Source: Trichoplax adhaerens
Lineage: Eukaryota; Animalia; Placozoa
Direction: 5' to 3'
Length of the DNA stretch: 64,000 nucleotides
NCBI RefSeq assembly: GCF_000150275.1
Contig: NW_002060943.1
Location: 2,262,987 to 2,326,986, forward strand
Shown: positions 23,363-41,850 of the stretch, piece by piece
How positions within the stretch are numbered: position 1 is the first letter of the stretch
Layout of the letters: the number at the start of each line of letters is the position of its first letter
Notes under the pieces: model-generated
Databases searched by the model: none
What the model saw: only the letters and a program-made list of their open reading frames with translations
What the model was told of the DNA's origin: nothing
Program-made: the position numbers and the translations under genes

Positions 23363-24480
23363 AGCGATGATATGGTTGCTATTATTATTTCTACTTTGGT
23401 TTCGATGTTGTGCGTTATGTCGCCGCCGAAAAACTGTTGCTCTTTGTAACTTGAGCTGTGTATAGATTGTACAATCAATTGACCTGGTATAAAAATGATA
23501 TCTTTAGCAAGATTTTAATTAGTAATTATATTGCTTTTGATAACATTCTCTATGAAAGCGTAGTTGCCAAAAAAGGAATTATCAAAAGTATTTACTTACT
23601 ATTAGTTTTCTTTATTTATTTCGACTAGTTTGTTTGTAGATACTTTTTATTAAATTTACGACTTGTTGAATACTTTGTAAGAAATATACTTCACATACGA
23701 TCTTACTGTAAATCTGATACCGTTTATACCCGTACTTACTTGTATCTAGTACCAATATAATTTCTAGGATCATTGTAATGGATCATTATAAATATGTGGG
23801 ATTGCTCTATTATTTTTCTCATAACATCGTTGTTGTAAATATACTTATACCTCGTACAATACAGATTGAGTTACAGTATGCAAGACCTCTAGTGCATAGC
23901 AGATATATTTCTAGTTCCCCATAATAAACTTGAAACAAAGCGAATATTACGCGTATGTATTCAATTTATAGGGTTATAGCTACTGCTGTTGTTTTAATAA
24001 TATTGCCTAGCTAGTTGATCGTATGTGTGCACTTCCTGGTCCCGCTTTGCAATTGATTTGCCTTGGGTAATCTTAGTGTAGCTTTATAAGATCCTTAGAA
24101 AAGTATATTTGGCGAATTTGGTTTTATATACAGTACAGTAGACTCGTTGTAAAATGATTTTATTATGTTTTGTGATAGTGCATGTTCATATGTATAGTTA
24201 AAGTTGTGAAGCTATCGACGTTTTGTCTCTGCATTGTATTTATCACATACACGTATACGGAAAATATTTGTTACTTTTAGATTGAATACTGCAAAAACAA
24301 TAATATTCCAAGTTTGCCCCGTATTTTGATGAAATTAAAGATTATATATATAGAATGAACCTTAAGCTACGTATAAATTCAGAGGTTCAAAGTTTCAAAT
24401 CGCTGACTTATAAAATTTAATCTTCAGGCAAGACTTGAAATCGCGTAATATTAAAGATACACAGTGCGACTACTTTAGCT

Positions 24481-25044
24481 ATGGCCAAGTTAGCTTTCAT
24501 TTCAGTTATATCGGTTAGCATTTTATTACTATGTCTGATCAAGCATTCAGCAACTTCGTCCTGTAATGGCAAGTTGACTGCAGATTGCAATAAAATGACT
24601 CGAGTATGCAATCAGGAACTATCTTGGAGGGCTACCAAAGAAGAAATTGAATTTACGATTACAGCAAAGACAGATAAATGGCTTGGCGTTGGTGTTTCTA
24701 AAGATCAGTTAATGCCATTTACAGATACCTACGTAGGATGGACAGCAAGAGGTAAAACTTACTTATCCGATCGCTACATCGGTCAGTACAGGACAGCTCC
24801 TACGCTCGATAGTAATCAAAATGTATTTAATGTTAACGGATCTTACGCCAATGGCTACTCAAGTTTAAGCTTTAAGCGACCCATTACAACAGGTGATAGC
24901 AACGATATTTCAGTCAATGGTTGCAGATACTTTTTCCTAGCAATAGGTGGTTCATTTAATGAGGCGACAAAGCAAATTGACCGTCACGTTTCCACACCTA
25001 TCGCTACTCCACAAGCGATTTGTATCGATCCATCGAAATGTTAA
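24481..25044 (+). CDS. Secreted stand-alone DOMON-domain protein (heme-b binding class, related to FRRS1/Skeletor-type DOMON); single exon, 187 aa
   Basis: Hydrophobic signal peptide, then SW...EFTITAKTDKWLGVGVSKDQLMPFTDTYVGW...LSDRY...NGYSSLSFKRPITTGDSND...IDRH. This is the DOMON pattern W-x-G-x-G-x-S...M...D and FxR...D, with the conserved Met and a C-terminal His. Confidence 0.85.
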   Translation: MAKLAFISVISVSILLLCLIKHSATSSCNGKLTADCNKMTRVCNQELSWRATKEEIEFTITAKTDKWLGVGVSKDQLMPFTDTYVGWTARGKTYLSDRYIGQYRTAPTLDSNQNVFNVNGSYANGYSSLSFKRPITTGDSNDISVNGCRYFFLAIGGSFNEATKQIDRHVSTPIATPQAICIDPSKC

Positions 25045-26007
25045 TGAGCTCATAAATAATTCCTATATGAGAAGTTGTAGTAGATTATCTGAAGCTCATG
25101 AAAATTTTGTGAAGCTATTATTTTGTGTTTCAATATAGGCTAATGATTTAATATTCATTTATTACAAGCTAATGGAATTGATTATTAATGTTAATTATAT
25201 CTGTCATATTATAATCGTCTTGAGGACTTATTTCGTTATGCTCATGATATAGTTCAAGCATGTCGAAATTCATGCTATATTGATTGATTTGCATTTAATG
25301 GATGTAATGATTTACGTGCATGTATGATATGAATAAGGAATCGAGTAAAGTACAGTAGTTACGAGAAGATTGATTGCTCTTATTTCATTATATTACCCAT
25401 GAAATTTGCAGTGGCTACAAGGAACTTCCTCATCCACCCGGTGTAACCCCTTAATCTACTATATGACATGCTGATGCTATCTCTTTGCTTACATTGATAT
25501 CATTGTTGATGAAATGATGATCGCGGCGTTATGTGTATTTGTGTAAATGAAATCTGTAGCTATCAGTGGAGCTTAATTTGCTGATGAATGAATAAATAGT
25601 CAATATTAAAGCTATACCCTACTGGTATTTTTTATGATTATGAGCTCATTGGTGTAGCTGTAGCTGCCTTGCAATGTAGCGGCTGTGAATTTTATGCTTT
25701 TAGGTGTCCTATTCGCTATGCTAGAGGTTTGCACTGTGCAATGAGCATAGGAATTCTAAGCATACAGCAGGGCTTAATAACTCGTTCTAATATCTGTGAG
25801 TAAGGGACTATCCGCGTTGAGAAGGAGTTCTTTAATGAGCGAGTCTACGTAATAGCAATACTGTTGTATACTGTACGACGGACGACAGTACAGTAGTATA
25901 CTAAGCAGCGCAAGTTGCAGTATGGAGTAGAGACATTTGACATTAGTAATAAAATATTATAGAACTGCTGCAGTATACAGTTCAACTTTCTGTATATCAA
26001 GGAACAC

Positions 26008-28223
26008 ATGGAGGCAATTCAAGACATCATTTTAGGGATTGATTTAGGAACAACGTCTGTTAAAATATGCTTACTAAACGAAGAAAATCGTAAAGTGATT
26101 TATTCAACAACAGCTGAGACCAATGCTGATGTACCGTCGGATAATGAAAATGGTAGCGAACAAAGTGTGCAGTTAATTTTGCAAGCTGTCCAAAAAGCGA
26201 TGTTAGATATACCTGATTTGTATAAGAGTAAAGTCAAGGCTATTGGAGTTTGTGGTCAGATGCATGGTTGCTTGTTATGGCAGTCAGGTAACTAATGGTC
26301 TTCAAAGACGTTTTAAATTCACCAGACACATCCAGCGGATGATTTGCTACATCGGTTAACATTACCACTACCATGATTATTATCGTTTGATGGTCGACAA
26401 GTACTTATTTTTACAATAAATTAGTATCTTGCTCTATCATTTATTTGTCTTCATTAAATGAATGACTTTTAGACAGTTGCTGGGAGATCACGAAAGGAAA
26501 CTACGAGTCTATTCAAGTCACCAACTGCACTCCTTTGTACACCTGGCAGGACGGGCGATGTGATACGCATTTCTTGCAAAGTTTACCTTCGAGTCAGTCC
26601 ACGGTGAAAATTGCCACAGGATTTGGTTGTGCAACGTTGTTTTGGCTGTTAAAAAATCGGTACAAGGATTGACTAATTTGATTAAGCTTGCAAGTTTCTG
26701 CATAGTATCTTTTGAATCAATTATTTTACAAATGACATTGAACTTAGCATTGCTCTATGTTCTGTTATAGACCTCAGCTAATCGGTCAATTTGATCGTGC
26801 ATCAACAATTCAAGATTTTTTGGTTTGTATTCTATGTCATACCAACAAAGTTGTTATGTCTGGTCAGAATGCTACAAGCTGGGGTTATTTTGATCCTATT
26901 CGAAATTGTTGGGAAACAGAAGTGTAAGTACACAGTGATAAAAGAGTTCGTGCTTGCAGGAATTGGCATAGCCATGTCATCTACATGTGTTATTTAGTGT
27001 AAATAATAATGATAATCATCAACGGTACTAGCTAAACACTAAGTGTCTGCTACAGTGCTGTTTATGGCAGTTGGAATAATAATTTAAATTTTAGAAATGA
27101 AGGACACTGGAGTGAAATTCTAGTGTTGCTGCATACACGCACAAATAGTTACTGAATATTTACGAGTAGTAAGGGAATAATGCAATATGGTTACTATTCA
27201 CTCGTTGACATTTTATATTCTTGACTATTGTTTTACTATAGTCTTGAGCCAGCTTCTTTTCCAATAGCGCTCTTACCTGAGGTATCAGATGCAGGTGAGA
27301 AAGCTGGCTATTTGCAACAAGCGATGTGGGGTTTGAAAGCTGGCATACCAGTGAGCGTAGCAAGTGGCGATATGCAGTGCTCTATATATTCTGCTCTGAA
27401 AGATAATACGGATGCAGGTAATGAAATCATGTAGATGTTTACTAGTTGTAAGAGGTTCAGATTCAAATATTGGAGATGATAGATCAGATTTTATGAAAAA
27501 TCATTTTAAATTAATAATATATCATTCTTTATATACGATAACGGGTCATGCCTGTATGTGGATTACATGCTGTGGTGAAACTTGTGGATTCTATGGATGT
27601 GGTATTCTATCGTAGTCATGAATATTAGTACTTCAGCTCAATTGGCATTTGTGGCAAGTCATGCGTTTATTCAGGATAATTTAACCGTTATTCCAGCTAG
27701 TATTCAAATTCAACCTTTCTTTCAAAAATCCTTTATCTCTGTTGCTGCAGCTCTAAATGGGGGCAATGCTTTAGCTGCATTTGTTGACATGTTGGCAAGC
27801 TGGATGAAGGATTTAGCAGTTGTTGATATACCAAATAAGGAAGAATTATTTGATAGAATACTGAGGTTAGCCTCTTCTGTAGAATCTGTACCGTCGTTAA
27901 AAATTGAACCGATATTATTGGGTGAGAGGCATGATCCAAAGCGCAGAGGTTGCGTTTCACACATTACACCGCATAATTTGCAATTGTCTAATGTTGCCAA
28001 TGGCCTCTTATATGGAATTATTCATAATTTAAATGATATGATGCCTGGTGAGTTTCTGCGAAAGGCTGGAATACGTCGTATTGTTGGTAGTGGACGGCTG
28101 CTGGCTTCTCATGCGTTCATTCGTGATATTGTTGAAAGTCAATTTCACCTACCTGTAACTATAGGGGCAACTGGCGATGCAGCAACAGGTGCAGCATTAG
28201 CTGTGATGCTAACAAGGCGTTAA
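26008..28223 (+). CDS. SHPK: Sedoheptulokinase (CARKL), FGGY carbohydrate kinase family; 5 exons
   Basis: LGIDLGTTSVK, IGVCGQMHG, LYTWQDGRC, ATGFGCATLFWL, QNATSWGYFD, GDMQCS, NISTSAQL, AAALNGGNALA, LGERHDP: SHPK-type motifs in order. Confidence 0.95.
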
Positions 28224-29265: not shown

Positions 29266-31277
29266 ATTGCAGTCATTTTGACATAGGATTCATTATTGGA
29301 CTAGTGCTAGAACAGACCAAGATGGCCGTAGTGCTAGTTTGAAGTTAAGGGATCATCTGGTATTGTAATACAGTATGAGCTAGGAGATCTTCGTGATCTA
29401 GTGTCGAGTCCACAGTCGAGTACAGTAGTGTACTGCACTGTATACGTCACTGGTCTGCACCTGCGCACTTTTGGACAACAGGATTTGCAGTCATTTTAAC
29501 ATAGGATTGATGATTATTGGACTAGTGCTAGAACAGACCAAGATGGCCGTAGTGCTAGTTTGAAGTTAAGGGATCATCTGGTATTGTAATACAGTATGAG
29601 CTAAGAGATCTTCGTGATCTACAGTAGTGTCGAGTCCACAGTCGAGTACAGTAGTGTACTACACTATACACGTCACTGGTCTGCACCTGCGCACTTTTGG
29701 ACAACAGGATTTGCAGTCATTTTAACATAGGATTGATGATTATTGGACTAGTGCTTGAACAGACCAAGATGGCCGTAGTGTTAATTAAGGGATCATCTGG
29801 TATTGTAATACAGTATGAGCTAAGAGATCTTCGTGATCTACAGTAGTGTCGAGTCCACAGTCGAGTACAGTAGTGTACTACACTGTACACGTCACTGGTC
29901 TGCACCTGCGCACTTTTGGACAACAGGATTTGCAGTCATTTTAACATAGGATTGATGATTATTGGACTAGTGCTTGAACAGACCAAGATGGCCGTAGTGT
30001 TAATTAAGGGATCATCTGGTATTGTAATACAGTATGAGCTAAGAGATCTTCGTGATCTACAGTAGTGTCGAGTCCACAGTCGAGTACAGTAGTGTACTAC
30101 ACTGTACACGTCACTGGTCTGCACCTGCGCACTTTTGGACAACAGGATTTGCAGTCATTTTAACATAGGATTGATGATTATTGGACTAGTGCTTGAACAG
30201 ACCAAGATGGCCGTAGTTTAANNNNNNNNNNNNNNNNNNNNNNNNNNNNNNNNNNNNNNNNNNNNNNNNNNAGCTAAGAGATCTTCGTGATCTAGTGTCG
30301 AGTCCACAGTCGAGTACTGTACAGCAGTGTACTGCACTGTACACGTCACTGGTCTGCACCTGCGCACTTTTGGACAACAGGATTTGCAGTCATTTTAACA
30401 TAGGATTGATGATTATTGGTCTAGTGCTTGAACAGACCAAGGAGGCTATAGTGCTAATTATGGGATCATCTGATATTCTAATACAGTATGAGCTAAGAGA
30501 TCTTCTTGGTCAAGTGTCGAGTCCATAGTACTGTAGAGTAAACTGAAACTCACTGAGTACAGTAGTGTACTGCGCAGTACACGTCGACACCTGCGCACTT
30601 TTGGACAACAAGATTTGCAGTCATTTTGAGATAGGATTCATGATTATTGGATTAGTTAGTGCTTGAACAGACCAAGATGGTCGTAGTGCTAGTTTAAAGT
30701 TAAGGGATCATCTGGTATTGTAATACAGTATAAGCTAAGAGATCTTCGTGATCTAGTGTCGAGTCCACAGTCGAGTACAGTAGTGTACTGCACTGTACAG
30801 TGTACACGTCACTGGTCTGCACCTGCGCACTTTTGGACAACAGGATTTGCAGTCATTTTGACATAGGATTCATTATTGGACTAGTGCTTGAACAGACCAA
30901 GGAGGCTATAGTGCTAATTATGGGATCATCTGGTATTGTAATACAGTATGAGCTAAGAGATCTTCGTGATCTAGTATCGAGTCCACAGTCCGAGTACAGT
31001 AATGTACTGCACTGTACACGTCACTGGTCGGCACCTGCGCACTTTTGGACAACAGGATTTGCAGTCATTTTAACATAGGATTGATGATTATTGGACTAGT
31101 GCTTGAACAGACCAAGATGGCCGTAGTGTTAATTATGCGATCATCTGATATTCTAATGTACAGTATGAGCTAAGAGACCTTCGTGGTCTACAGTACTGCA
31201 CTGTTACACGTCACGTCAAATACACGTCGACACGTCACCGGTCGACACCTGCGCACTCTTGGACAACAGGATTTGCC
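29266..31277. repeat. Minisatellite-like tandem array, at least 9 copies of a ~219 bp unit, with a 50-N gap at 30222-30271
   Basis: Anchor gcagtcatttt at 29269, 29487, 29713, 29932, 30151, 30386, 30617, 30849 and 31061; the units at 29713 and 29932 appear identical. Confidence 0.98.
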
Positions 31278-31837: not shown

Positions 31838-34800
31838 ATGTCCAAGAAGCAACGAATATCTTCCAATCCTACCGAAAAAGCCACACTATCCTTAAATGAG
31901 AGGATACTACGAGAATGCCATGGGCTCTATGCAGATCAGGATAAAGGTGAATTCTCCCTTCGATACAGATAAAATACGTCCACAATCTCCTTGATCATCT
32001 CCTGTCATAATCGTTGATGATTGCACTGTAATCATGGAATGATTTGAAAAACGGCGGTTGCCAATGCATTCTGCTGTCCATTTCATCTTGCACTTTTTAA
32101 TTTATTTATACCAATCTCTATGGATAATGATGAAATGGGAAAGAGTGAATTATTATTGTCGTCAGTTGATTTGCAGGCTTAATCCAATGGTGTAGTTTGC
32201 AAATATTGAAATGATTGGACAATGACAGTGCAGACCAACTCATTCAACTGATCACTTGATGTCTCCCATGGTAACAAAAGCATTTACTGTATCTACTTCG
32301 GCTTCATTGATCGGTAGCCTTTGGTATGGATGGATAAGATACACTGATAATATCAACAGTTTAGCATACTTGCACCAGGGACTACTAGAAGATTGTACTT
32401 TCATGATAAAATAGGAAGAAGAGCAGTTAATCATGCGATCGCCATCAGTTAGTAGAAATGATTGTCATGACTGCATAATTCAGCATTGGATGGGCACGTC
32501 CAATCCATCATCCAACAGTACAATAAATAGTTTATCTAACTGATGCTAATTGAGAATTAGACTAGCTGTAAATTATACCACAGTCGATACTCGATAGTCC
32601 TATCCATCGAGGTAAGAAAAGACCTCTATAGGCTGATCGATTGATTGGAGACGATCCATGACTTCCCATTTTATTGCCTTCCATATCTGCAATCTATCCT
32701 TGTAGCCTTGAATGACACACGGAAATGACCTTGGATAACTTGGCTGCAGTGCTGGATCATCAAGGCTAATTCTTATTTATACTCGTAGGTCATTATAGTA
32801 TCGCTTTCCATACCAGGATGCAATCAAAATTTAATTGAAAGTATCAGCATCTTCGCCATAAATTAATCCATTTGACGATCATCATTGAAGACCAGTAAAG
32901 GGCTTTTGCTACCGGATATCCCAGCCCAAATCAATCAATAGTTTCCCATACAGTAGAGTACATGCTACTAACACCACAATGTGAGAAAAACATAGTATCT
33001 CAACTCTTGCATGCTGTCGTCATCAACACTTCTTGATCGAAAGGGTGATATGTTTATTGCCATCTTGAGCAGTAGCTATATAACTATGTTTCGTACCTAT
33101 GCTGGCCTTAACGAATTGCTATTAGGATTGCCATTTAGAATAAATTTATGCATTTCGTAATGTTTCAATAGTGGCTTTACAAGTAACCATCTGTAATGCC
33201 TTCTAACCAATACATGCAATTTTACATTACTTTTATCACTGTATATAGGCTTGGTTTCCATGGCTAAAAGCCTCGATCTGTCTTTATTAACCCCTCGAAA
33301 TAAAATTACAGTTTTACTGATTGGTAATCACTCTGCTGGTAAATCATCCTTTATTAATTGGTGAGCAACAACTATTTGTTCATATCGAATCGATTACGAA
33401 TGCCAACAGATGTAGAGCTACTGTATACAGCAAATAGGCGAATGGTTAAGATAACAGTAATTTCATGATAGAGAATTCAGTTATGGTATTCATGCAGTAT
33501 TTAGTAATGATAGCGTATAATTATTATGGATAAATAATAAAGAATAAATTGAATGCTGTTACTAGGTATGTCGAGGAACATGTTCAAAAAACTGGAGTTG
33601 CAATAGAAACGCAAGGGTTTACTTTTGTTACTAGCGGCAAGAAACGTGAAACTTTAACTGTAAGAAAATTTTCCTGGCTAATACAGGGTTAAATGATAGA
33701 AGTGTATTCGACTTTTAAACATTGCTTCATGAAATGAAATAGTAATGACTACTTAAATATACGGATTTACGTAAACTACAGTACGTATAAAGTAACTCCT
33801 TCTTACTAAGCATCGAAAACTACGTATTCGCTCTGGTAACGTTGACTAATCCATGTAATTCGCTTTTATTGCTTGGTATAATATAGGGTAATGCTACTTT
33901 ACATTTATATCCGCACTTTAAACCCCTACAAAGATTCGAAGGTAAACTTCTAATTTAAAGCATTCTAAAGATAGATATATCGTTGTATATTTATATTAGA
34001 TATGGCTATAATTATGTGGGTGAATCAGTATTAATGGACAGAATTTTTGAATGGATTGACTTTATTAGGCGTAGTAGAATATTTGACAACGGAAATTTCT
34101 ACTTCTAAGCAAAAGAAATTCTCCGTAATTACGTTTATTGATACTCCTGGCTTAGTGGATGGCGATATGTTGTATCCATTTGATGTAGACAAAACAATCG
34201 AATGGCTAGGTAAAATTCACTGATCTATGCTCGACTGCTAGGACAACATTTCTTATAGGATGCTCACCTCTAATAGAATTGTCCTGGATTTATTGATAGT
34301 AAAGTAAAATTGCCTTGAAGCATGAGTCACACCTGGAATTGCAACATTTACAATGTTTTTGACCATACTGTTGTTATGTATAATTTAATTTATTCATTAG
34401 GCAACATGGCAGATTTGATTTTTGTCTTTTTTGATCCAATTGGTCAAGCTCTTTGTAAGAGAACACTCAATATTGTTCGTAAGTAGCAAAACATTTTCAA
34501 TCTTAATTAATTTTTGGTAATGCTAGCATACTTATCACACTCGATATCCGAATTGCAGAAACTTTAAATGGTAAGCATGGAGATCGCCTTCGATTTTATT
34601 TAAGTAAGGCAGATACAGCCGGGACAGAAACGGATAGGCAGGCAAGTTCTACAGTAGTTCTATCTGATAAGCTTTATGCTAGTACTTGTAAAAAATCATT
34701 TCAAAAGGGCCCCAATTGGGCGTTTATTACAATTCATCACTATTAATTCGATTATATGAAGATCCAGGATAATTTTAAATTTGGATTATTCTTTCAGCGG

Positions 34801-36334
34801 GTTATGATGCAAATTACTCAAGAACTATGCAAACGGCCTGGATTAAATAAGACAGGGTTTGATATGCCGACAATTTATGTACCGTCTATGACCTCAGGCA
34901 AGGTACGCAGTAGGATTAGTGTACTAATGTATATTAGAAGTCGTTTTTATTAGGACAGTGATAGGTGAAATCCATGTGTTATTATGTTTAGCCTATAAGA
35001 TGTGAGAATCAAATTGAAGATGTTTGCAAAACTGTGGAGAAGACAATTAGCCAGACGATTCAAAATACCTTAAATTCATTGGAAAAAGACTGCCAAAAAA
35101 TTGCAGATGCTGTAGACGAGAAGCTTCGGATTAATGCGTGAGTACTACGTTAGCCTTTATCTAATTTTAATTTTACGCCTGCATTTGGCCTTAAAGCTAA
35201 CATTCCAGTCTAGGGATTAACAAAATTCATGTAATGTGTACTGTATGATGCAAATTTTATAACTTCTTAGGCAGTAAAATACAGTACAATGATGTTTGAG
35301 TAGTTAGTACAGTATGATTCAATGTTTTTACCTGTTTCAATCTGATTATGTAAACAGTGAAAATTCATCGTACAACCTAAAAGCCCGTGGCAAAGGATTC
35401 ATTTTCGGATTTTTTGGTTTAACATTGCCGTTGTTAATTTTGGTTGCATGGCTTACAAGCTTGCCAGTCATTAATAAAGTTCTTGGTTCTGAATTAACAG
35501 ATACACTAAAGTCATACCTGGTATGTACTATGAATTTTGAGTAGAGGTGATCAATATTAGTGTCGTCAATAAAATGATTTTTATTTTTAAGAGTGGCATT
35601 GCCACTCTTGTTTGCTTTATGTGAGTAGTGTAACTACTTTTTTGTACTTGTTAGGTGCATTTTACTGACTTATGGAACACCGTACCAGAGGAATACAAAA
35701 CAAACTTATTAATTATTTTCATTGTGGTATCGTTATTATTACTTTATTTATCTCGGTGGATGTCAAGGTACGGCATATAGGATCGCGTTGGTTTGTTGAG
35801 ATTTTTCATTGTATTACAGCACATGCGTTCTGTAACATACGCAACTATTGATGAAATAATATAGCATGCAACAGTACCGTAGTATGATAGTAATGCCATT
35901 AAAATTTGGTAGCTTCTTCTATTGGATACTGATTATATATTGTACATGCGTTGTTGTTATAGACTGAAAGACACAATGTCACGCAAACAAATTCGACGCA
36001 TGATGGAAGTTCAAAGTTATGTAACTGGTCATGTGAAGACTAAAAAAGTAAGTTTAAATTTTGCAAATATCTTTAAACGATATTAACCAGTATTGACAAT
36101 AACCATTACATCGATGCGAATTACGCATCGCATATTCATATGCAATCATGCCTACTGCATTAATTACGCCATGATAGACGTGTAAATCACTAAGCGTTAT
36201 CAAGAACGTCAGAGTTGTCAATAGTCCTTTGAAACTCAATCTGCATATATTTTTCTTTTATTTACTACTTCTCTTAGGAACAACTATATCAAGAATATCT
36301 AACTCAAAGTATCGGTTCAACAGACCTGTCTTAA
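31838..36334 (+). CDS. Uncharacterised EHD/sarcalumenin-like dynamin-superfamily P-loop NTPase with two C-terminal TM segments; 13 exons
   Basis: Stitched protein MSKKQR...ITVLLIGNHSAGKSSFINW (G1)|YVEEHVQKTGVAIETQGFTFV (G2)...ITFIDTPGLVDG (G3)...DLIFVFFDPIG...FYLSKAD (G4)...helical region...GFIFGFFGLTLPLLILVAWL (TM1)...LLIIFIVVSLLLLLLSRW (TM2)...EQLYQEYLTQSIGSTDLS*. Exons join in frame. Confidence 0.88.
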
Positions 36335-37178
36335 TTAATTACCCACGATGTCATCTGCATGCAAATATTTGCTATTTTTAGTTATTCAACATGTAATTGA
36401 AAATTTTTCGCCATTGGTTATAGCGTAACAAATAAAAAGCAGCATTCGTTGCTGTATCAGTGTTCCATAATCCTGTCTTTGCTACTAGCTTAAACCGAGT
36501 AATCTCTGATATTCCATATTCATTCGCTGACAATGAATTTGTAGTTGCTCCAGATTTTAATAGCATAGCTAGGGTTGCACTTATTATTCAATAGATGTAA
36601 AATAAGGATAACTCTATATACAGACCTAGATAGAGACTGTTAACATCAATGTGGCATACTGACTTTTAATATTATAAAAAACAACGCTCTTTCAATCGTT
36701 TCGGCAAATAATCAGGAAAAATTTACATTACAAAATTGAATTGAGAACAGCTACATAACATCACACAGTTAAAATAATCACTTCTTACATTCATGATATG
36801 AAAGAAAGTTCAACGGTATTCGATGACGCTAAAAGGCATTACAATATTGCTTTCTCAGGCCTTTAGTTCAACATCTACAACTAGAAAGTAACATAATGAA
36901 GTTATCCCTAATATTTGTAGGTAATAATTATTGATTTTTCAAGTATCTTAAGTATCGATACAGTAAGGAATCCTACATTGGCAACATAACTAACGATCAT
37001 GATGTTTTATGCTATCATTTTAGTAAACGGTTTAATATTATGGATAGCATAACCGGCATAGAAATAACCAAAACCGACCTAATAGCTGCACATTTTTTTC
37101 TACTTTTACATCATACCAAGCAATATTTAGATATACGCGTACAAATACAGTCTGCTCAGTACCGTTATAATAGTCATC

Positions 37179-40100
37179 TTAATCGTCTCCTGCTTCATTG
37201 CCATCTTTCCAGCTTCGTGGCCGTGCTCCTCCAAATAAGTTCCTGGTATCTGAAGCAACAGATAAAGCTGGCGCACCTACCGATCTCGGTTGCAGGTTCA
37301 ACTTAGGTCGACGAGAAGCAGTTTCTACAGGAATGTTAAAAAGCGATATAAAATGAATTTAACATCTTTAAGTATTTAGGGTATTCGATTCGCTATCAAC
37401 TTTGTCTTGTATATTGGGTATAAATTTTCATTTGGCAAAATATTAATTACTTACACACATACACCGTACGTACAATGATACTGTATACTCGCAATGTGAA
37501 CGTTAAACATTGCAAAACGACTCATTATTAAAATCTCATTTATAACATCTGTAATAAAAATGTGGCTAGTTTTCTACTATTATAATTGACCATCACATTT
37601 AAAATACAAATACGACTATAATAATTTACCAGGGGAAGGTTCACGAAATTCTTCCGGTGGTGGCCTACTGCTGCTGCTGCTGCTGCCGCCACGGCCTCGA
37701 CCTCGATAATTCTGATATCCACCGCGGCGCGGACCTCCGCGTCCGCCACCATCTAGTGAAACAAAAGATTCTAGTGAGATGAAACTTATATTGTAGGTCA
37801 TGCACAAGCTATACATGACGATATTTGACTATTCAAGAGAATAGCAATCCACATCAATGAGTAAAGAGTTACTGACATGAATTATCACGGTATCGACCAC
37901 CATCTCTTCTACCATATTGTCCTAATGATATACGAATACATCAAATCACCATAATTGCATCGTATAGTATGTACTGTAATATAATTTCTGAAGTTAGAGT
38001 CATTAGATCCTAATCAAAGTGGAACATTACCTTCGCCATCACCACGATCACCGCGATCACCGCGATCACCGCGCTCGCGATCTCCATTGCCGCCACCACG
38101 ATCGTTTCTTTTACCACCAGCGATATCAACTTTTATATTTCTATTTTCAAATTCCTGTAATACATTGAAGACAGTGTTAAAGTTGAACGCTTTAAAATCC
38201 GTTTTAACATCAGCAGAGATTCATCTACCATTTTAAAAACTATATTTACTTTGTACATTAAATTGAGAAATGCAGGGGTATTAATAAATAAAATCTCTAG
38301 TTGAGTTCAATCTACAGGTTTTATGCGCACAAGATAATAAACATAGTAGAAAAAATGTCTGTAAAGTCAGTTTCAATATCTATATCTACTAGATGAGATT
38401 TAATTAAACAACAGTGGGCATCAATAATAACTACTATCGTATTCTACAGCTACGGTCTTTGAAATTTTTACAACCTAAATTTATAGGCCTAGTACATACT
38501 GAATAATCTACGGTACCATTTAGAGATTTAATTTTTATAGTCAGTTAATTTCTTAATTGACGGAAAATCGAGCAATCTGAATTAATATACCGTCGTACTA
38601 ATTGAATCGATTACAATTAACATTATGCTTTGCTGTTTTTCATCTGTCAAAATCAAAACACCGAATGCCTTACCGATCCATTGTACTCAAGAGCTTCTTT
38701 CAATCCTTCAGGTGATGAAAATTCTACATAACAAAAGCCTAAAAAAATAGATAGAATGTTACGTTATGATTTATAAAGCAACTAGGGTGTCTTAAGTGTA
38801 GAACAGATATGCTACATAGTTATTCGATGTCAATGGCAATCAAAATTGCGGTACTGTACTTTTTAAGACTATAAATAGTCTACGGTAATTGTTGTCAGAA
38901 GGGTACTATGCAGCACAGACACTTTTATACTATTCGGTCTTTATGCGGTATTACGCGGAATGTTATCAATATTTAATGTCTAGTCAATTTTCTACATCAC
39001 GTTCAACGTGCACATTGTGGCAGAATCTAGCTTCCGTTTACTGTTGTAATGTCGCTTGCAAGATCTATCCAAGGCAATGTATTACGTTAATTAACTGCTT
39101 CTATGAATGTGCCAATCGTGGCGCGATCAGTTATTTGGTATTTTGCGTATATTGTATGATGTAACAGTCGAACGGTAGTCACTTCCGATAATTTTAGTTG
39201 ATCAAAGCCTGATAATGTTTTCATCTTAGTCAGCCTATAACTCTGACGTGAGAGAATAATTATGCGTTACAGTACGGTATTTTAAAAAAGACTGGATAAT
39301 AAAAACCAGAGATAGCACCATAGTGCGATTAGTTACTCTCAAACAAAATGTCGACATTGTAATTACCTTCTCATTACTACATATAATGAGTTTAAATAAC
39401 ATTGATACCATGTACAGAACACGTCTCATAAATGTTAAAACGGAAAAGAAGGCAATCATAATGGAGGTATCCATTGAAAAATTTCCGTAGTAGTAGAGGA
39501 AAAGTAGTTAAGGTACTTTTGTATGTCAAGAAAATCCATTGACGTGACGAATCTCTCACAACCAAAAAGGCATCGGAAATTGATAATAAACTTCAATTAT
39601 GATCTTCTACGAGCACCAGCTAGTGTACACTGTACAGTAGTAGCGGATACATTTCATTTACAAACATTGTGGGGATGGTTAAAAAATGGATACAATGTAG
39701 TATACCCTGACTCGATTACGTTATTAAACAGTACAGTATAGGAAGTCATTAATGTTGGAATTTTATACGCGCTTATTCATCATCCGATACACTTGCATTT
39801 GTATAGAGTAATGAAATATATACTAATTATTAAAACGGCTAAAATGAAACGAAAGTGTCTTAATGTATTCATGATGGAATAGAAAAGTTACAAAGAGAGA
39901 AGAGACTTTAATCGATGGCTAAAATCAAACTATTCCAATGATAGCAAGCATGCATGCACATTTAAACCATCGCAAGGGCACCCTACAATGGCCTACATGG
40001 GTCGATGATTATAGGATTATTACACACATACTGTATTGCCTTATTCATTTAACAAATATTTACGTAAAGATAATGACAATCTCGCCATTAGGTGAACAAG

Positions 40101-41850
40101 GTAGTGAAAATACCGTAGTATAATGAATGTATGATAGATACGTATCATTCTCCACGACTTGTCAAGGTAGCGTATTTACGATGACGTTGTAGGTCCTATC
40201 GTTATGTACACGTCTACTGAAACGATTGCGCTTCATGAATTGTCCTTGTGACTAAAAGAATTGCAAGGTCAAGTAAAGAAAATCCTGTGCGATGATTAGG
40301 TTTTCATTGTGCTCTGTGTCATTAATGAATTCATCTCGACTCGTTTGAAGGCATTGATCGCATCGCCGACTACTACAACACGTCTACAAGAGTTGGGTCC
40401 TATTTGTCCAAGTTTATATTTTAAAAATAAACCTCTTTCAAGCTTACAGTATACTTGCTGATTAGGGAAAAAATGGAATTAGAAGTTTACTTTACCTCGG
40501 AATTTGTCGGTTTCTCTATCACGGACCAAACGTACACTAACCACCTAAAAAAAAAAAATGTCAACAATTGGAGAAGTTATTACCAGTATTTAGCTCATGC
40601 ATTCAAGGTCCATTCTATCCGTAGCTAGAGAAAGAAATTAATTTAAGATAACATTTTCTTTCTGGGCGATTTATCGTTGCTCTTATGGATTCATTTGCCA
40701 GCAATATTGAAGGCGTGCTATCTACCGATTGGCCATGAATTCATGAATTCAAGAGAGATTGATTCATTTCAGGACAAGCCTGAATCATCTTGTCTCTGCC
40801 ATGAATTACGGTACATTCTTCACGTCTACACTGACAGTATGAAAACCCATCATGATGGATAGATATTGTTGTAACTTGATGTACGGTAATGTACGATCGT
40901 ATTTTACAAAGCATAAGCTGGCTATAGCCAGTCTAGAGGACAAATTGTTGCCTAAGGAAAAGGATGCAAAGGGTAAGGAAAATGTTGGAAGACATGGCAA
41001 CCAGCGTCGGCTGCAGTAAGTGAGAATCGCACGTGTACTGTACGACCATGTCGACTATAGCATGGACAGTCACTATCGATGTACCCAAACATGGGTCCAT
41101 GTACGATACGGTACATGAGTGTTGACGGGTATTTTCAATGCTGGTATGGATGACCAATGCATTGCAAGGGGTATCATGGAGGCAAGTTAAACGAGTTACT
41201 ATAACGTACAAGGTAGCGTATACGCTAGTCCATAGTGGAAATTCAAAGAAGAGAAAATGAAATCCATGGTGGCAAAGAAAATTTTCATTGACGATGTCCA
41301 AGACTATCTGTCGTTCAATATTGATAGCAACACCTTGTAAGTGTTAATACATTATCCAACTGCGACAGTCTACTGAGAATTGGGCTGGTTACGAGAGGAA
41401 GAAGATAGACTAGAGTAGTATACTATGTCCTGCCCTGTTGATCTTTTGCTCCATTGACGAAAGAAGACATTGGAGACAGTAATGGTTTGGAATGGGGAAG
41501 GGATGACCATAAATTGCCTGTGCAAGATACTTACATCTAAGTGCTTGAAAATTTGCTCTAGGTCTCTTTGAACACAATTAAAGGGCAAATTACCAACATA
41601 AGCTGTATAAGGAGGCTCTTCAGGAAAAGGTTTCCGAACCCTGCTACCTCCGCCATAGCGTTGACCGCTACCACCTCTATCCGCGTCAGGTGTCCAATCC
41701 ACATTATGAAAATGGAAAAGAAAGAGTCCGAATTTGAGTTCAACATCCATTCTAGCGCTACTCTACTTTAATCAAGAGTTTAATCTAGCGTTTATTACTC
41801 TCTATCACAAATTAAGGGATGGATTTTCCTTGTCTCTTACCTTCCGCCAT
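37179..41850 (-). CDS. EIF4H: Eukaryotic translation initiation factor 4H; multi-exon
   Basis: [26 protein letters not shown]|[17 protein letters not shown]|FCYVEF (RRM), [27 protein letters not shown]. The first exon ATGGCGGAAG|gtaag at 41841-41850 is inferred and the exon-2 acceptor is uncertain. Confidence 0.93.

Follow-up and report, generated by a model that had tools for sequence, protein, structure and literature searches.

The EH domain-containing proteins (EHD1-4/RME-1; PDB 5mtv, 2qpt and 7sox) tubulate, stabilise or cut membranes and do not fuse them; they cycle on and off the membrane, and their filaments insert their tip into it, the inserting element of EHD4 being the loop between helices alpha8 and alpha9 (PMC9741607). 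Those characterised members of the dynamin superfamily that carry membrane segments at the stalk's tip are mostly of the fusion type (PMC5084822, partial text). Bacterial proteins related to EHD and sarcalumenin that carry two transmembrane (TM) helices at the C-terminus were already described in 2020 (PMC7016017, partial text). The trypanosome protein TbMfnL (Tb927.7.2410) consists of a presequence, a G domain and two TM segments and resides in the inner membrane of the mitochondrion, oriented towards the matrix; its overexpression increases membrane branching only when the G1 lysine and the TM segments are intact, and its loss causes no change of shape (bioRxiv 10.1101/2023.06.28.546890, partial text). 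The available part of this preprint states that the MfnL architecture is absent from opisthokonts and plants, and contains no mention of EHD. Here, a gene of the placozoan Trichoplax adhaerens is described which encodes an EHD-type G domain followed by two hydrophobic segments. It is located at positions 31838 to 36334, on the + strand, of a stretch of 64,000 nucleotides of contig NW_002060943.1 (assembly GCF_000150275.1), referred to below as the window.

The 13-exon gene model, of which the exon borders were set by script, gave a single open frame of 446 amino acids from the ATG at 31838 to the TAA at 36334, with 11 GT-AG introns and one GC-AG intron (intron 7, 34642-34797). RNA support was sought in contigs of eight public runs, which carry neither strand nor expression level. 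All 12 intron joints were present in four of these runs (X6, X10, X9 and X13). Run X8 contained 11 joints and retained intron 12, and X4, X1 and X11 contained no joint and were unspliced and DNA-like. The complete spliced frame proposed in the initial annotation was thus recovered with its joints in RNA. The G-domain exons and both hydrophobic exons were found on single contigs that start from exon 1 (X13 record 11, 1908 nt; X8 record 19, 2445 nt). Therefore, the objection that the hydrophobic exons belong to a different transcript is removed. At intron 7, the joints of five runs skipped 156 bases, and the GC donor is therefore favoured over the one chosen in the database model P0002, a GT 12 bases downstream; that model contains four additional residues and is otherwise identical to the 446-residue protein. 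A gene-model artefact or a fusion of two genes was ruled out by the RNA contigs together with full-length relatives of 440-470 residues. RNA contigs also covered part of intron 1 (31918-32836) and one kept intron 12 (36048-36277); these contigs may originate from unspliced RNA or DNA. Retention of intron 12 would alter the end of the predicted returning helix at the C-terminus (see below).

The protein has the extended G domain of the dynamin superfamily with the motifs G1 to G4. G1 (GNHSAGKS) starts at residue 62, G3 (DTPG) at 148 and G4 (SKAD) at 212, and the G2 threonine of switch I, which the initial annotation had also reported, corresponds to T89 by alignment to EHD2 and is a threonine in 100 of 109 relatives. 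Among the 109 members aligned, G62, S65, G67, K68 and S69 never vary and the catalytic positions hardly do, and G4 reads [ST]KxD across the family. Pfam identified Dynamin_N at 35 bits (cut-off 27) and MMR_HSR1. When the PDB was searched by sequence, only EHD2 and EHD4 passed E 0.001 (E 7e-11 with the single sequence), and a profile search again placed EHD2 and EHD4 first (E 1e-17), with MFN1 marginal at E 0.03. This agrees with the EHD-type G domain that had been annotated, and so do the searches for the EH domain said to be missing: Pfam EH, EHD_N and DUF5600 gave no match in the Trichoplax protein, whereas all three matched a control EHD. Likewise, no EH domain was matched in three of three family members and five of five protist members, while the control EHD L011 matched PF12763. 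Trichoplax also has two separate EHD-length proteins of 572 and 535 residues among the entries listed in a published EHD/sarcalumenin compilation (at least 529 residues, which is above the length of the present family; PMC7016017, partial text).

Thus the EHDs share the G-domain type and a composite helical domain with the Trichoplax protein, and are its best match in both sequence and fold. Differences were found at their membrane and dimer sites. Where EHDs have a lipid-binding tip, the Trichoplax family has a hydrophobic hairpin, and it lacks the EH domain and an equivalent of Trp238. By register, the position of W238 in the EHD2 dimer interface is Gln or Lys in the family, and a Trp is absent in either case. 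On the alpha6 face a pair of Gln residues is kept, in 106 and 96 of the 109 members, respectively. In the region of the EHD KPF loop a hydrophobic residue (F or L) is present in 98 of 109.

For the two hydrophobic segments, the highest Kyte-Doolittle means over 19 residues are 2.18 and 2.12, and the segments are separated by 35 residues, as had been annotated. At least two hydrophobic segments follow G4 in 102 of 109 relatives, by hydropathy. In the 109 relatives the outer flanks of the hairpin are basic, with means of 4.1 and 5.1 K+R, the loop between the segments is net acidic, and an N-terminal hydrophobic stretch was found in only one member. Therefore, both ends of the protein are predicted to be cytosolic. 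Sarcalumenin likewise has an EHD-type G domain and no EH domain, and its name has been borrowed by some database entries of the family. Sarcalumenin is luminal, with a signal peptide, in contrast to the near absence of N-terminal hydrophobic stretches here. None of 106 members had a presequence-like N-terminus according to a composition rule, which is crude, and the median leader is 22 residues long. Many animal homologs end in [ED][HQ]D[LM] (EHDL in 6, DHDL in 5 and EQDL in 3 of 109), and the Trichoplax protein ends differently; this animal end motif is conserved and predicted to be cytosolic. A KDEL-type reading of the xHDL ending was dropped, since the C-terminal end is predicted to be on the cytosolic side.

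Structure prediction gave concordant models from 37 sequences (predicted local distance difference test, pLDDT, 78.1) and from 109 sequences (pLDDT 93.3, predicted template modelling score, pTM, 0.86). In order, these comprise two N-terminal helices, the G domain, a 75-residue helix that runs into hydrophobic segment 1, three short helices in the loop, segment 2 and a 33-residue C-terminal helix. In a fold search against 48,161 chains, EHD4 was the top match of the first model at Z 21.1, the next entry being at 14.0. With the better model, EHD4 was found at Z 25.6 (root-mean-square deviation 3.6, 323 residues aligned, model 18-443 against chain 19-403), and it was the open form of EHD4 that matched best. 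Truncated mitofusin-1 (Z 19.9) and fusions of the GTPase domain with the bundle signalling element of dynamin and Drp1 (Z ∼17) were also matched, and these alignments likewise end on the C-terminal bundle helix of the known structure. As the alignment to EHD4 reaches model residue 443 and the helical domain of EHD2 ends at residue 399 (PMC13427840, partial text), the C-terminal "tail" is taken to occupy the place of the last stalk helix. It is predicted to return into the stalk bundle rather than to be a free tail. The "basic amphipathic tail" of the initial annotation was therefore kept only in part: the flank is basic, while the helix is only moderately amphipathic (moment up to 0.45) and is a stalk helix in the model. 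In the model, the N-terminal helices, the 75-residue helix and the C-terminal helix would pack into a single bundle whose tip carries the hairpin, the dynamin-superfamily arrangement of N- and C-terminal helices with a membrane site at the tip. Mutual-information covariation (284 sequences, effective number 126) yielded only conservation and kinship signal.

The register of the hairpin was obtained from profile alignments, in which query residue 303 corresponds to residue 301 of a bacterial two-TM relative and the bacterial profile aligns to EHD2 up to residue 320. By this register, the hairpin starts a few residues past the membrane-inserting alpha8-alpha9 loop of the EHDs, i.e., at the site of the EHD lipid-binding tip.

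Mitofusin/Fzo1 and bacterial BDLP/IniA also carry their membrane segments at the stalk tip, and their C-terminal helix likewise folds back to the G-proximal bundle (Z 18-20, from partial matches to truncated constructs). Mitofusin/Fzo has two helical bundles and is located in the mitochondrial outer membrane, whereas the Trichoplax protein is much shorter with one helical bundle, and sequence similarity is marginal. Atlastin/Sey1/RHD3 are of similar size and likewise combine a G domain and a single helical bundle with two hydrophobic segments and a C-terminal helix. However, atlastin has RD at G4 and an Arg in the P-loop, in place of [ST]KxD and the invariant Ser65 of the Trichoplax family; Sey1/RHD3 also have the Ser. 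The tail helix of atlastin works on the bilayer rather than on the protein's other domains (PMC5084822, partial text), whereas that of the Trichoplax protein is predicted to be inside the bundle. Atlastin and GBP were not among the matches listed in the fold and PDB sequence searches, which does not by itself exclude them. Thus, of the fusogen-like layouts suggested initially, that of atlastin/Sey1 was not supported, and the layout is predicted to be mitofusin/MfnL-like rather than atlastin-like.

With exon 5 as query, 410 matches were obtained, including P0002 at 100% identity, which is named "EH domain-containing protein 2 [Trichoplax sp. H2]". Other relatives are named si:ch211-11k18.4 and si:dkey-98f17.5 (zebrafish) or "uncharacterized". 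Thirty-six relatives, from animals or without taxon label, have identities of 58-68% with the query. On average, identity with the query amounts to 0.65 in the G domain and 0.16-0.26 in the membrane part. In an exhaustive search, 218 cluster representatives were obtained at E <= 1e-30. Those named among 30 distant representatives include Pigoraptor, Clastostelium, Hemimastix, Chytriomyces, Tetraselmis, Hemiselmis, Vitrella, Blattamonas nauphoetae and Eukaryota sp. TZLM1-RC, and a further search added oomycetes and Cryptosporidium. As judged from these matches, the family spans animals up to lizards, a chytrid, an amoebozoan, a green alga, the stramenopile-alveolate-rhizarian (SAR) group, cryptophytes and an oxymonad. 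The member from Blattamonas nauphoetae, which has no mitochondrion (PMC10703272, partial text), has 38% identity to the query over 274 residues. Viral contigs yielded no relatives of the family or of EHD, and plasmids gave one weak match to a bacterial two-TM protein.

When a newt protein was used as query, the best 120 of 1207 matches (101 of them named) came from amphibians, lungfish, coelacanth, fishes, sharks and lampreys, together with seven squamate rows, and none of the 101 named ones came from a mammal, bird, turtle or crocodilian. A loss from these four groups is likely on this distribution. The best human match of the zebrafish gene is sarcalumenin, at E 2e-5 (table in PMC3530609, partial text), in agreement with the lack of a mammalian member among the matches. 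The shark Callorhinchus milii has a second, divergent paralog (P0144) with the G1 sequence GNRSAGKS and a degenerate G4, alongside a conventional copy (P0340); the changed motifs of P0144 possibly reflect changed nucleotide handling.

No study of the family was found in the literature, in a search which left most subscription papers outside its range; si:ch211-11k18.4 appeared as one table row and si:dkey-98f17.5 not at all. The available parts of a 2026 EHD review (PMC13282721), a review of Dictyostelium dynamins (PMC8565484), an Mx phylogeny (PMC11789081) and PMC2775675 do not mention it. The proposal of an uncharacterised system thus holds for the family and not for its layout, which the bacterial two-TM proteins and TbMfnL had already exhibited. 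What is new is an apparently unstudied branch with a different predicted location; the kind of architecture is known.

A Planctomycetes protein, P0320, has the G1 sequence GNHSAGKS and two hydrophobic segments. In the phylum Planctomycetota, 22 of 101 genomes gave a match at E 0.001, eight of them full-length and strong, and 10 loci were examined. The profile of this bacterial two-TM group matched EHD2 at E 8e-51 and the Trichoplax family at E 1.6e-35 over 277 columns. Among the groups tested it was the best profile match of the Trichoplax family, compared to E 2e-18 for EHD. In the family, as in MfnL and the bacterial group, two TM segments follow the G domain towards the C-terminus, and the two ends lie on the same side. 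The Planctomycetota proteins (P0320, L001-L020) share the G1 sequence GNHS[AS]GKS and were assigned to the MfnL type by layout and phylum, not by comparison with TbMfnL itself. They keep the alpha6 Trp, which is missing from the Trichoplax family, in which a loop of 35 residues separates the segments. The presequence of eukaryotic MfnL is cleaved and the protein faces the mitochondrial matrix, whereas the Trichoplax family has no presequence and has members among animals, in a chytrid and in a green alga. The small "ancient paralog" group in the MfnL preprint (stramenopile, alveolate and haptophyte) could represent protist members of the Trichoplax family. In most of the loci L001-L010 the two-TM gene directly follows a gene of ∼420 residues, which is an amidohydrolase in L001, and in L009 a phospholipase-D gene lies further upstream; these neighbors gave no functional clue.

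Phylogenetic trees were calculated from the G domain and the start of the stalk, using 39 of 63 rows and then 27 of these 39, after near-duplicates and two very long outgroup rows had been dropped. They contained two similar EHDs and seven bacterial two-TM proteins, and sarcalumenin and eukaryotic MfnL were not included. The Trichoplax family formed one clade, with support of 98.6/100 (39 rows) and 100/100 (27 rows, mixture model). Together with the bacterial two-TM group and EHD it was separated from the other bacterial dynamin-like rows at 100/100. The two EHD rows joined the bacterial two-TM group at 82/96. In approximately unbiased (AU) tests, which included only these two EHD rows, neither a grouping of the family with EHD (p-AU 0.22) nor one with the bacterial two-TM group (p-AU 0.36) was rejected.

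Exons of the Trichoplax gene, in window coordinates, and the protein elements they encode
Exon	Position	Strand	Content
1	31838..31946	+	Residues 1-37: short polar leader, then the first of the two N-terminal helices (helical domain); joint in RNA
2	33249..33360	+	Second N-terminal helix; G1 P-loop GNHSAGKS at 33323-33346
3	33566..33659	+	Switch I; G2 Thr89 at 33609-33611
4	33887..33941	+	Aligns to the EHD KPF loop; YPHF-like in the Trichoplax protein
5	34069..34209	+	G3 DTPG at 34140-34151
6	34401..34478	+	Family signature FDPxGQALCxR
7	34559..34641	+	G4 SKAD at 34603-34614; followed by the GC-AG intron
8	34798..34902	+	Helix equivalent to EHD alpha6; conserved Gln pair, without the Trp of the EHD dimer interface
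9	34992..35137	+	Hinge with invariant Asn; start of the long stalk helix (equivalent to EHD alpha8)
10	35358..35520	+	Last part of the stalk helix; basic flank; hydrophobic segment 1 at 35395-35463; first part of the loop
11	35655..35767	+	End of the 35-residue loop; hydrophobic segment 2 (35703-35762)
12	35963..36047	+	Basic flank; first half of the predicted returning stalk helix
13	36278..36334	+	End of the returning helix, conserved LYxEYL; stop codon

Upstream of the gene, a tandem array at 29267-31195 (8.6 copies of a unit of ∼219 bases at 82% matches, interrupted by an N gap) ends ∼640 bases before the start codon, and a DOMON-domain gene and an FGGY carbohydrate kinase are located at 24439-28223. 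On the other side, a convergent gene on the minus strand (36850-41760) has a spliced 3' end that meets the 3' untranslated region of the Trichoplax gene near 36850-36880. It showed a weak RRM match and RGG-rich exons, and presumably resembles eIF4H/eIF4B. No functional link was seen between the gene and its neighbors in the window (FGGY kinase, DOMON, RRM and ankyrin).

The function proposed for the protein, with a probability somewhat short of even, is that of a cytosol-facing endomembrane GTPase which tethers membranes and fuses or branches them. Because neither a signal peptide nor a presequence is present, it would by default be inserted into the endoplasmic reticulum first, and the two-segment hairpin would anchor it in an internal membrane. 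This membrane is considered non-mitochondrial because presequence-like N-termini are absent and a member is found in the mitochondrion-free Blattamonas nauphoetae. In EHD2, the EH tail and a Met after G4 favour ATP (PMC5084822, partial text). Since both are missing from the Trichoplax family, GTP is probably the nucleotide used, rather than ATP. Hydrolysis would be cation-assisted via the invariant P-loop Ser. The G domains would pair via the G interface in trans across two membranes, and the swing of the stalk would be transmitted rigidly into segment 1, leading to tethering and then to fusion or branching. This outcome is preferred because stalk-tip-anchored members of the superfamily are mostly of the fusion type and TbMfnL raises connectivity. 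The lack of the Trp of the constitutive EHD dimer also speaks for it.

Several points weigh against this proposal. The membrane segments were called from hydropathy and charge and not by a topology predictor. Profile searches with the region after the hairpin gave no significant match to the C-terminal helices of EHD or of the bacterial group, so that the placement of the last helix rests on the model. One of the EHDs compared has a Gln, not a Met, after G4, which makes the nucleotide argument weak. The conserved Gln pair on alpha6 possibly allows a different constitutive dimer. Finally, the nearest solved relatives are the EHDs, which act on membranes otherwise than by fusion.

The strongest competitor, which is still rather unlikely, is a permanently anchored EHD: neighbouring protomers would line up on a single membrane, where the hairpin would act as a wedge that bends, stabilises or cuts tubules. 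EHD2 and EHD4 being the nearest relatives in sequence and fold, the match to the open form of EHD4, the hydrophobic residue kept in the KPF region and the insertion of the same tip by EHD filaments are all consistent with such a scaffold. However, the Trp of the EHD dimer is absent and KPF itself is changed, cycling on and off the membrane is impossible for an integral protein, and TbMfnL, with the same layout, raises connectivity. It is distinctly less probable that the protein is a membrane-anchored nucleotide switch or scaffold, acting in stress, immunity, osmoregulation or organelle contact without itself reshaping membranes. The G domain is far better conserved than the membrane part, the dynamin-related IRG and GBP proteins act in immunity (PMC5084822, partial text), and lineages have apparently lost the gene, all of which would suit a switch; yet the full dynamin-type bundle, the hinge and the tip anchor are retained, and an identity of ∼60-68% across animals is easier to reconcile with a housekeeping role than with an arms race. 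An opisthokont counterpart of MfnL that shapes mitochondrial membranes is very improbable, since the shared layout with TbMfnL, the best profile match to the Planctomycetota group and the basic animal leaders are set against the lack of presequence-like leaders (by a crude rule, and outer-membrane targeting needs no presequence), a member in an amitochondriate oxymonad, the separate clade at 100/100 and the stated absence of MfnL from opisthokonts.

Taken further, the preferred function as a tethering and fusing or branching GTPase would make the family an overlooked endomembrane fusion machine that dates back to the last eukaryotic common ancestor and works independently of atlastin, mitofusin and OPA1, with a range from metamonads to lizards and a loss in mammals. 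The family would have kept the integral-membrane state of the lineage ancestral to the EHDs, in which the hairpin would have been traded for a lipid-binding tip and the EH domain. In this full form the proposal is unlikely.

A conserved and apparently unstudied branch that spans the eukaryotes is unusual in a superfamily as small and heavily studied as the dynamins, and an apparent loss from mammals would account for its having been overlooked. The database names "EH domain-containing protein" and "sarcalumenin" are wrong for its members, and the published absence of the MfnL architecture from opisthokonts is contradicted by the Trichoplax family. With members in zebrafish, Xenopus and Anolis, knockout and tagging are feasible. 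The combination of an EHD-type motor with a fusogen-type anchor would provide a test of what makes a dynamin scaffold a fusogen as opposed to a machine for fission or curvature.

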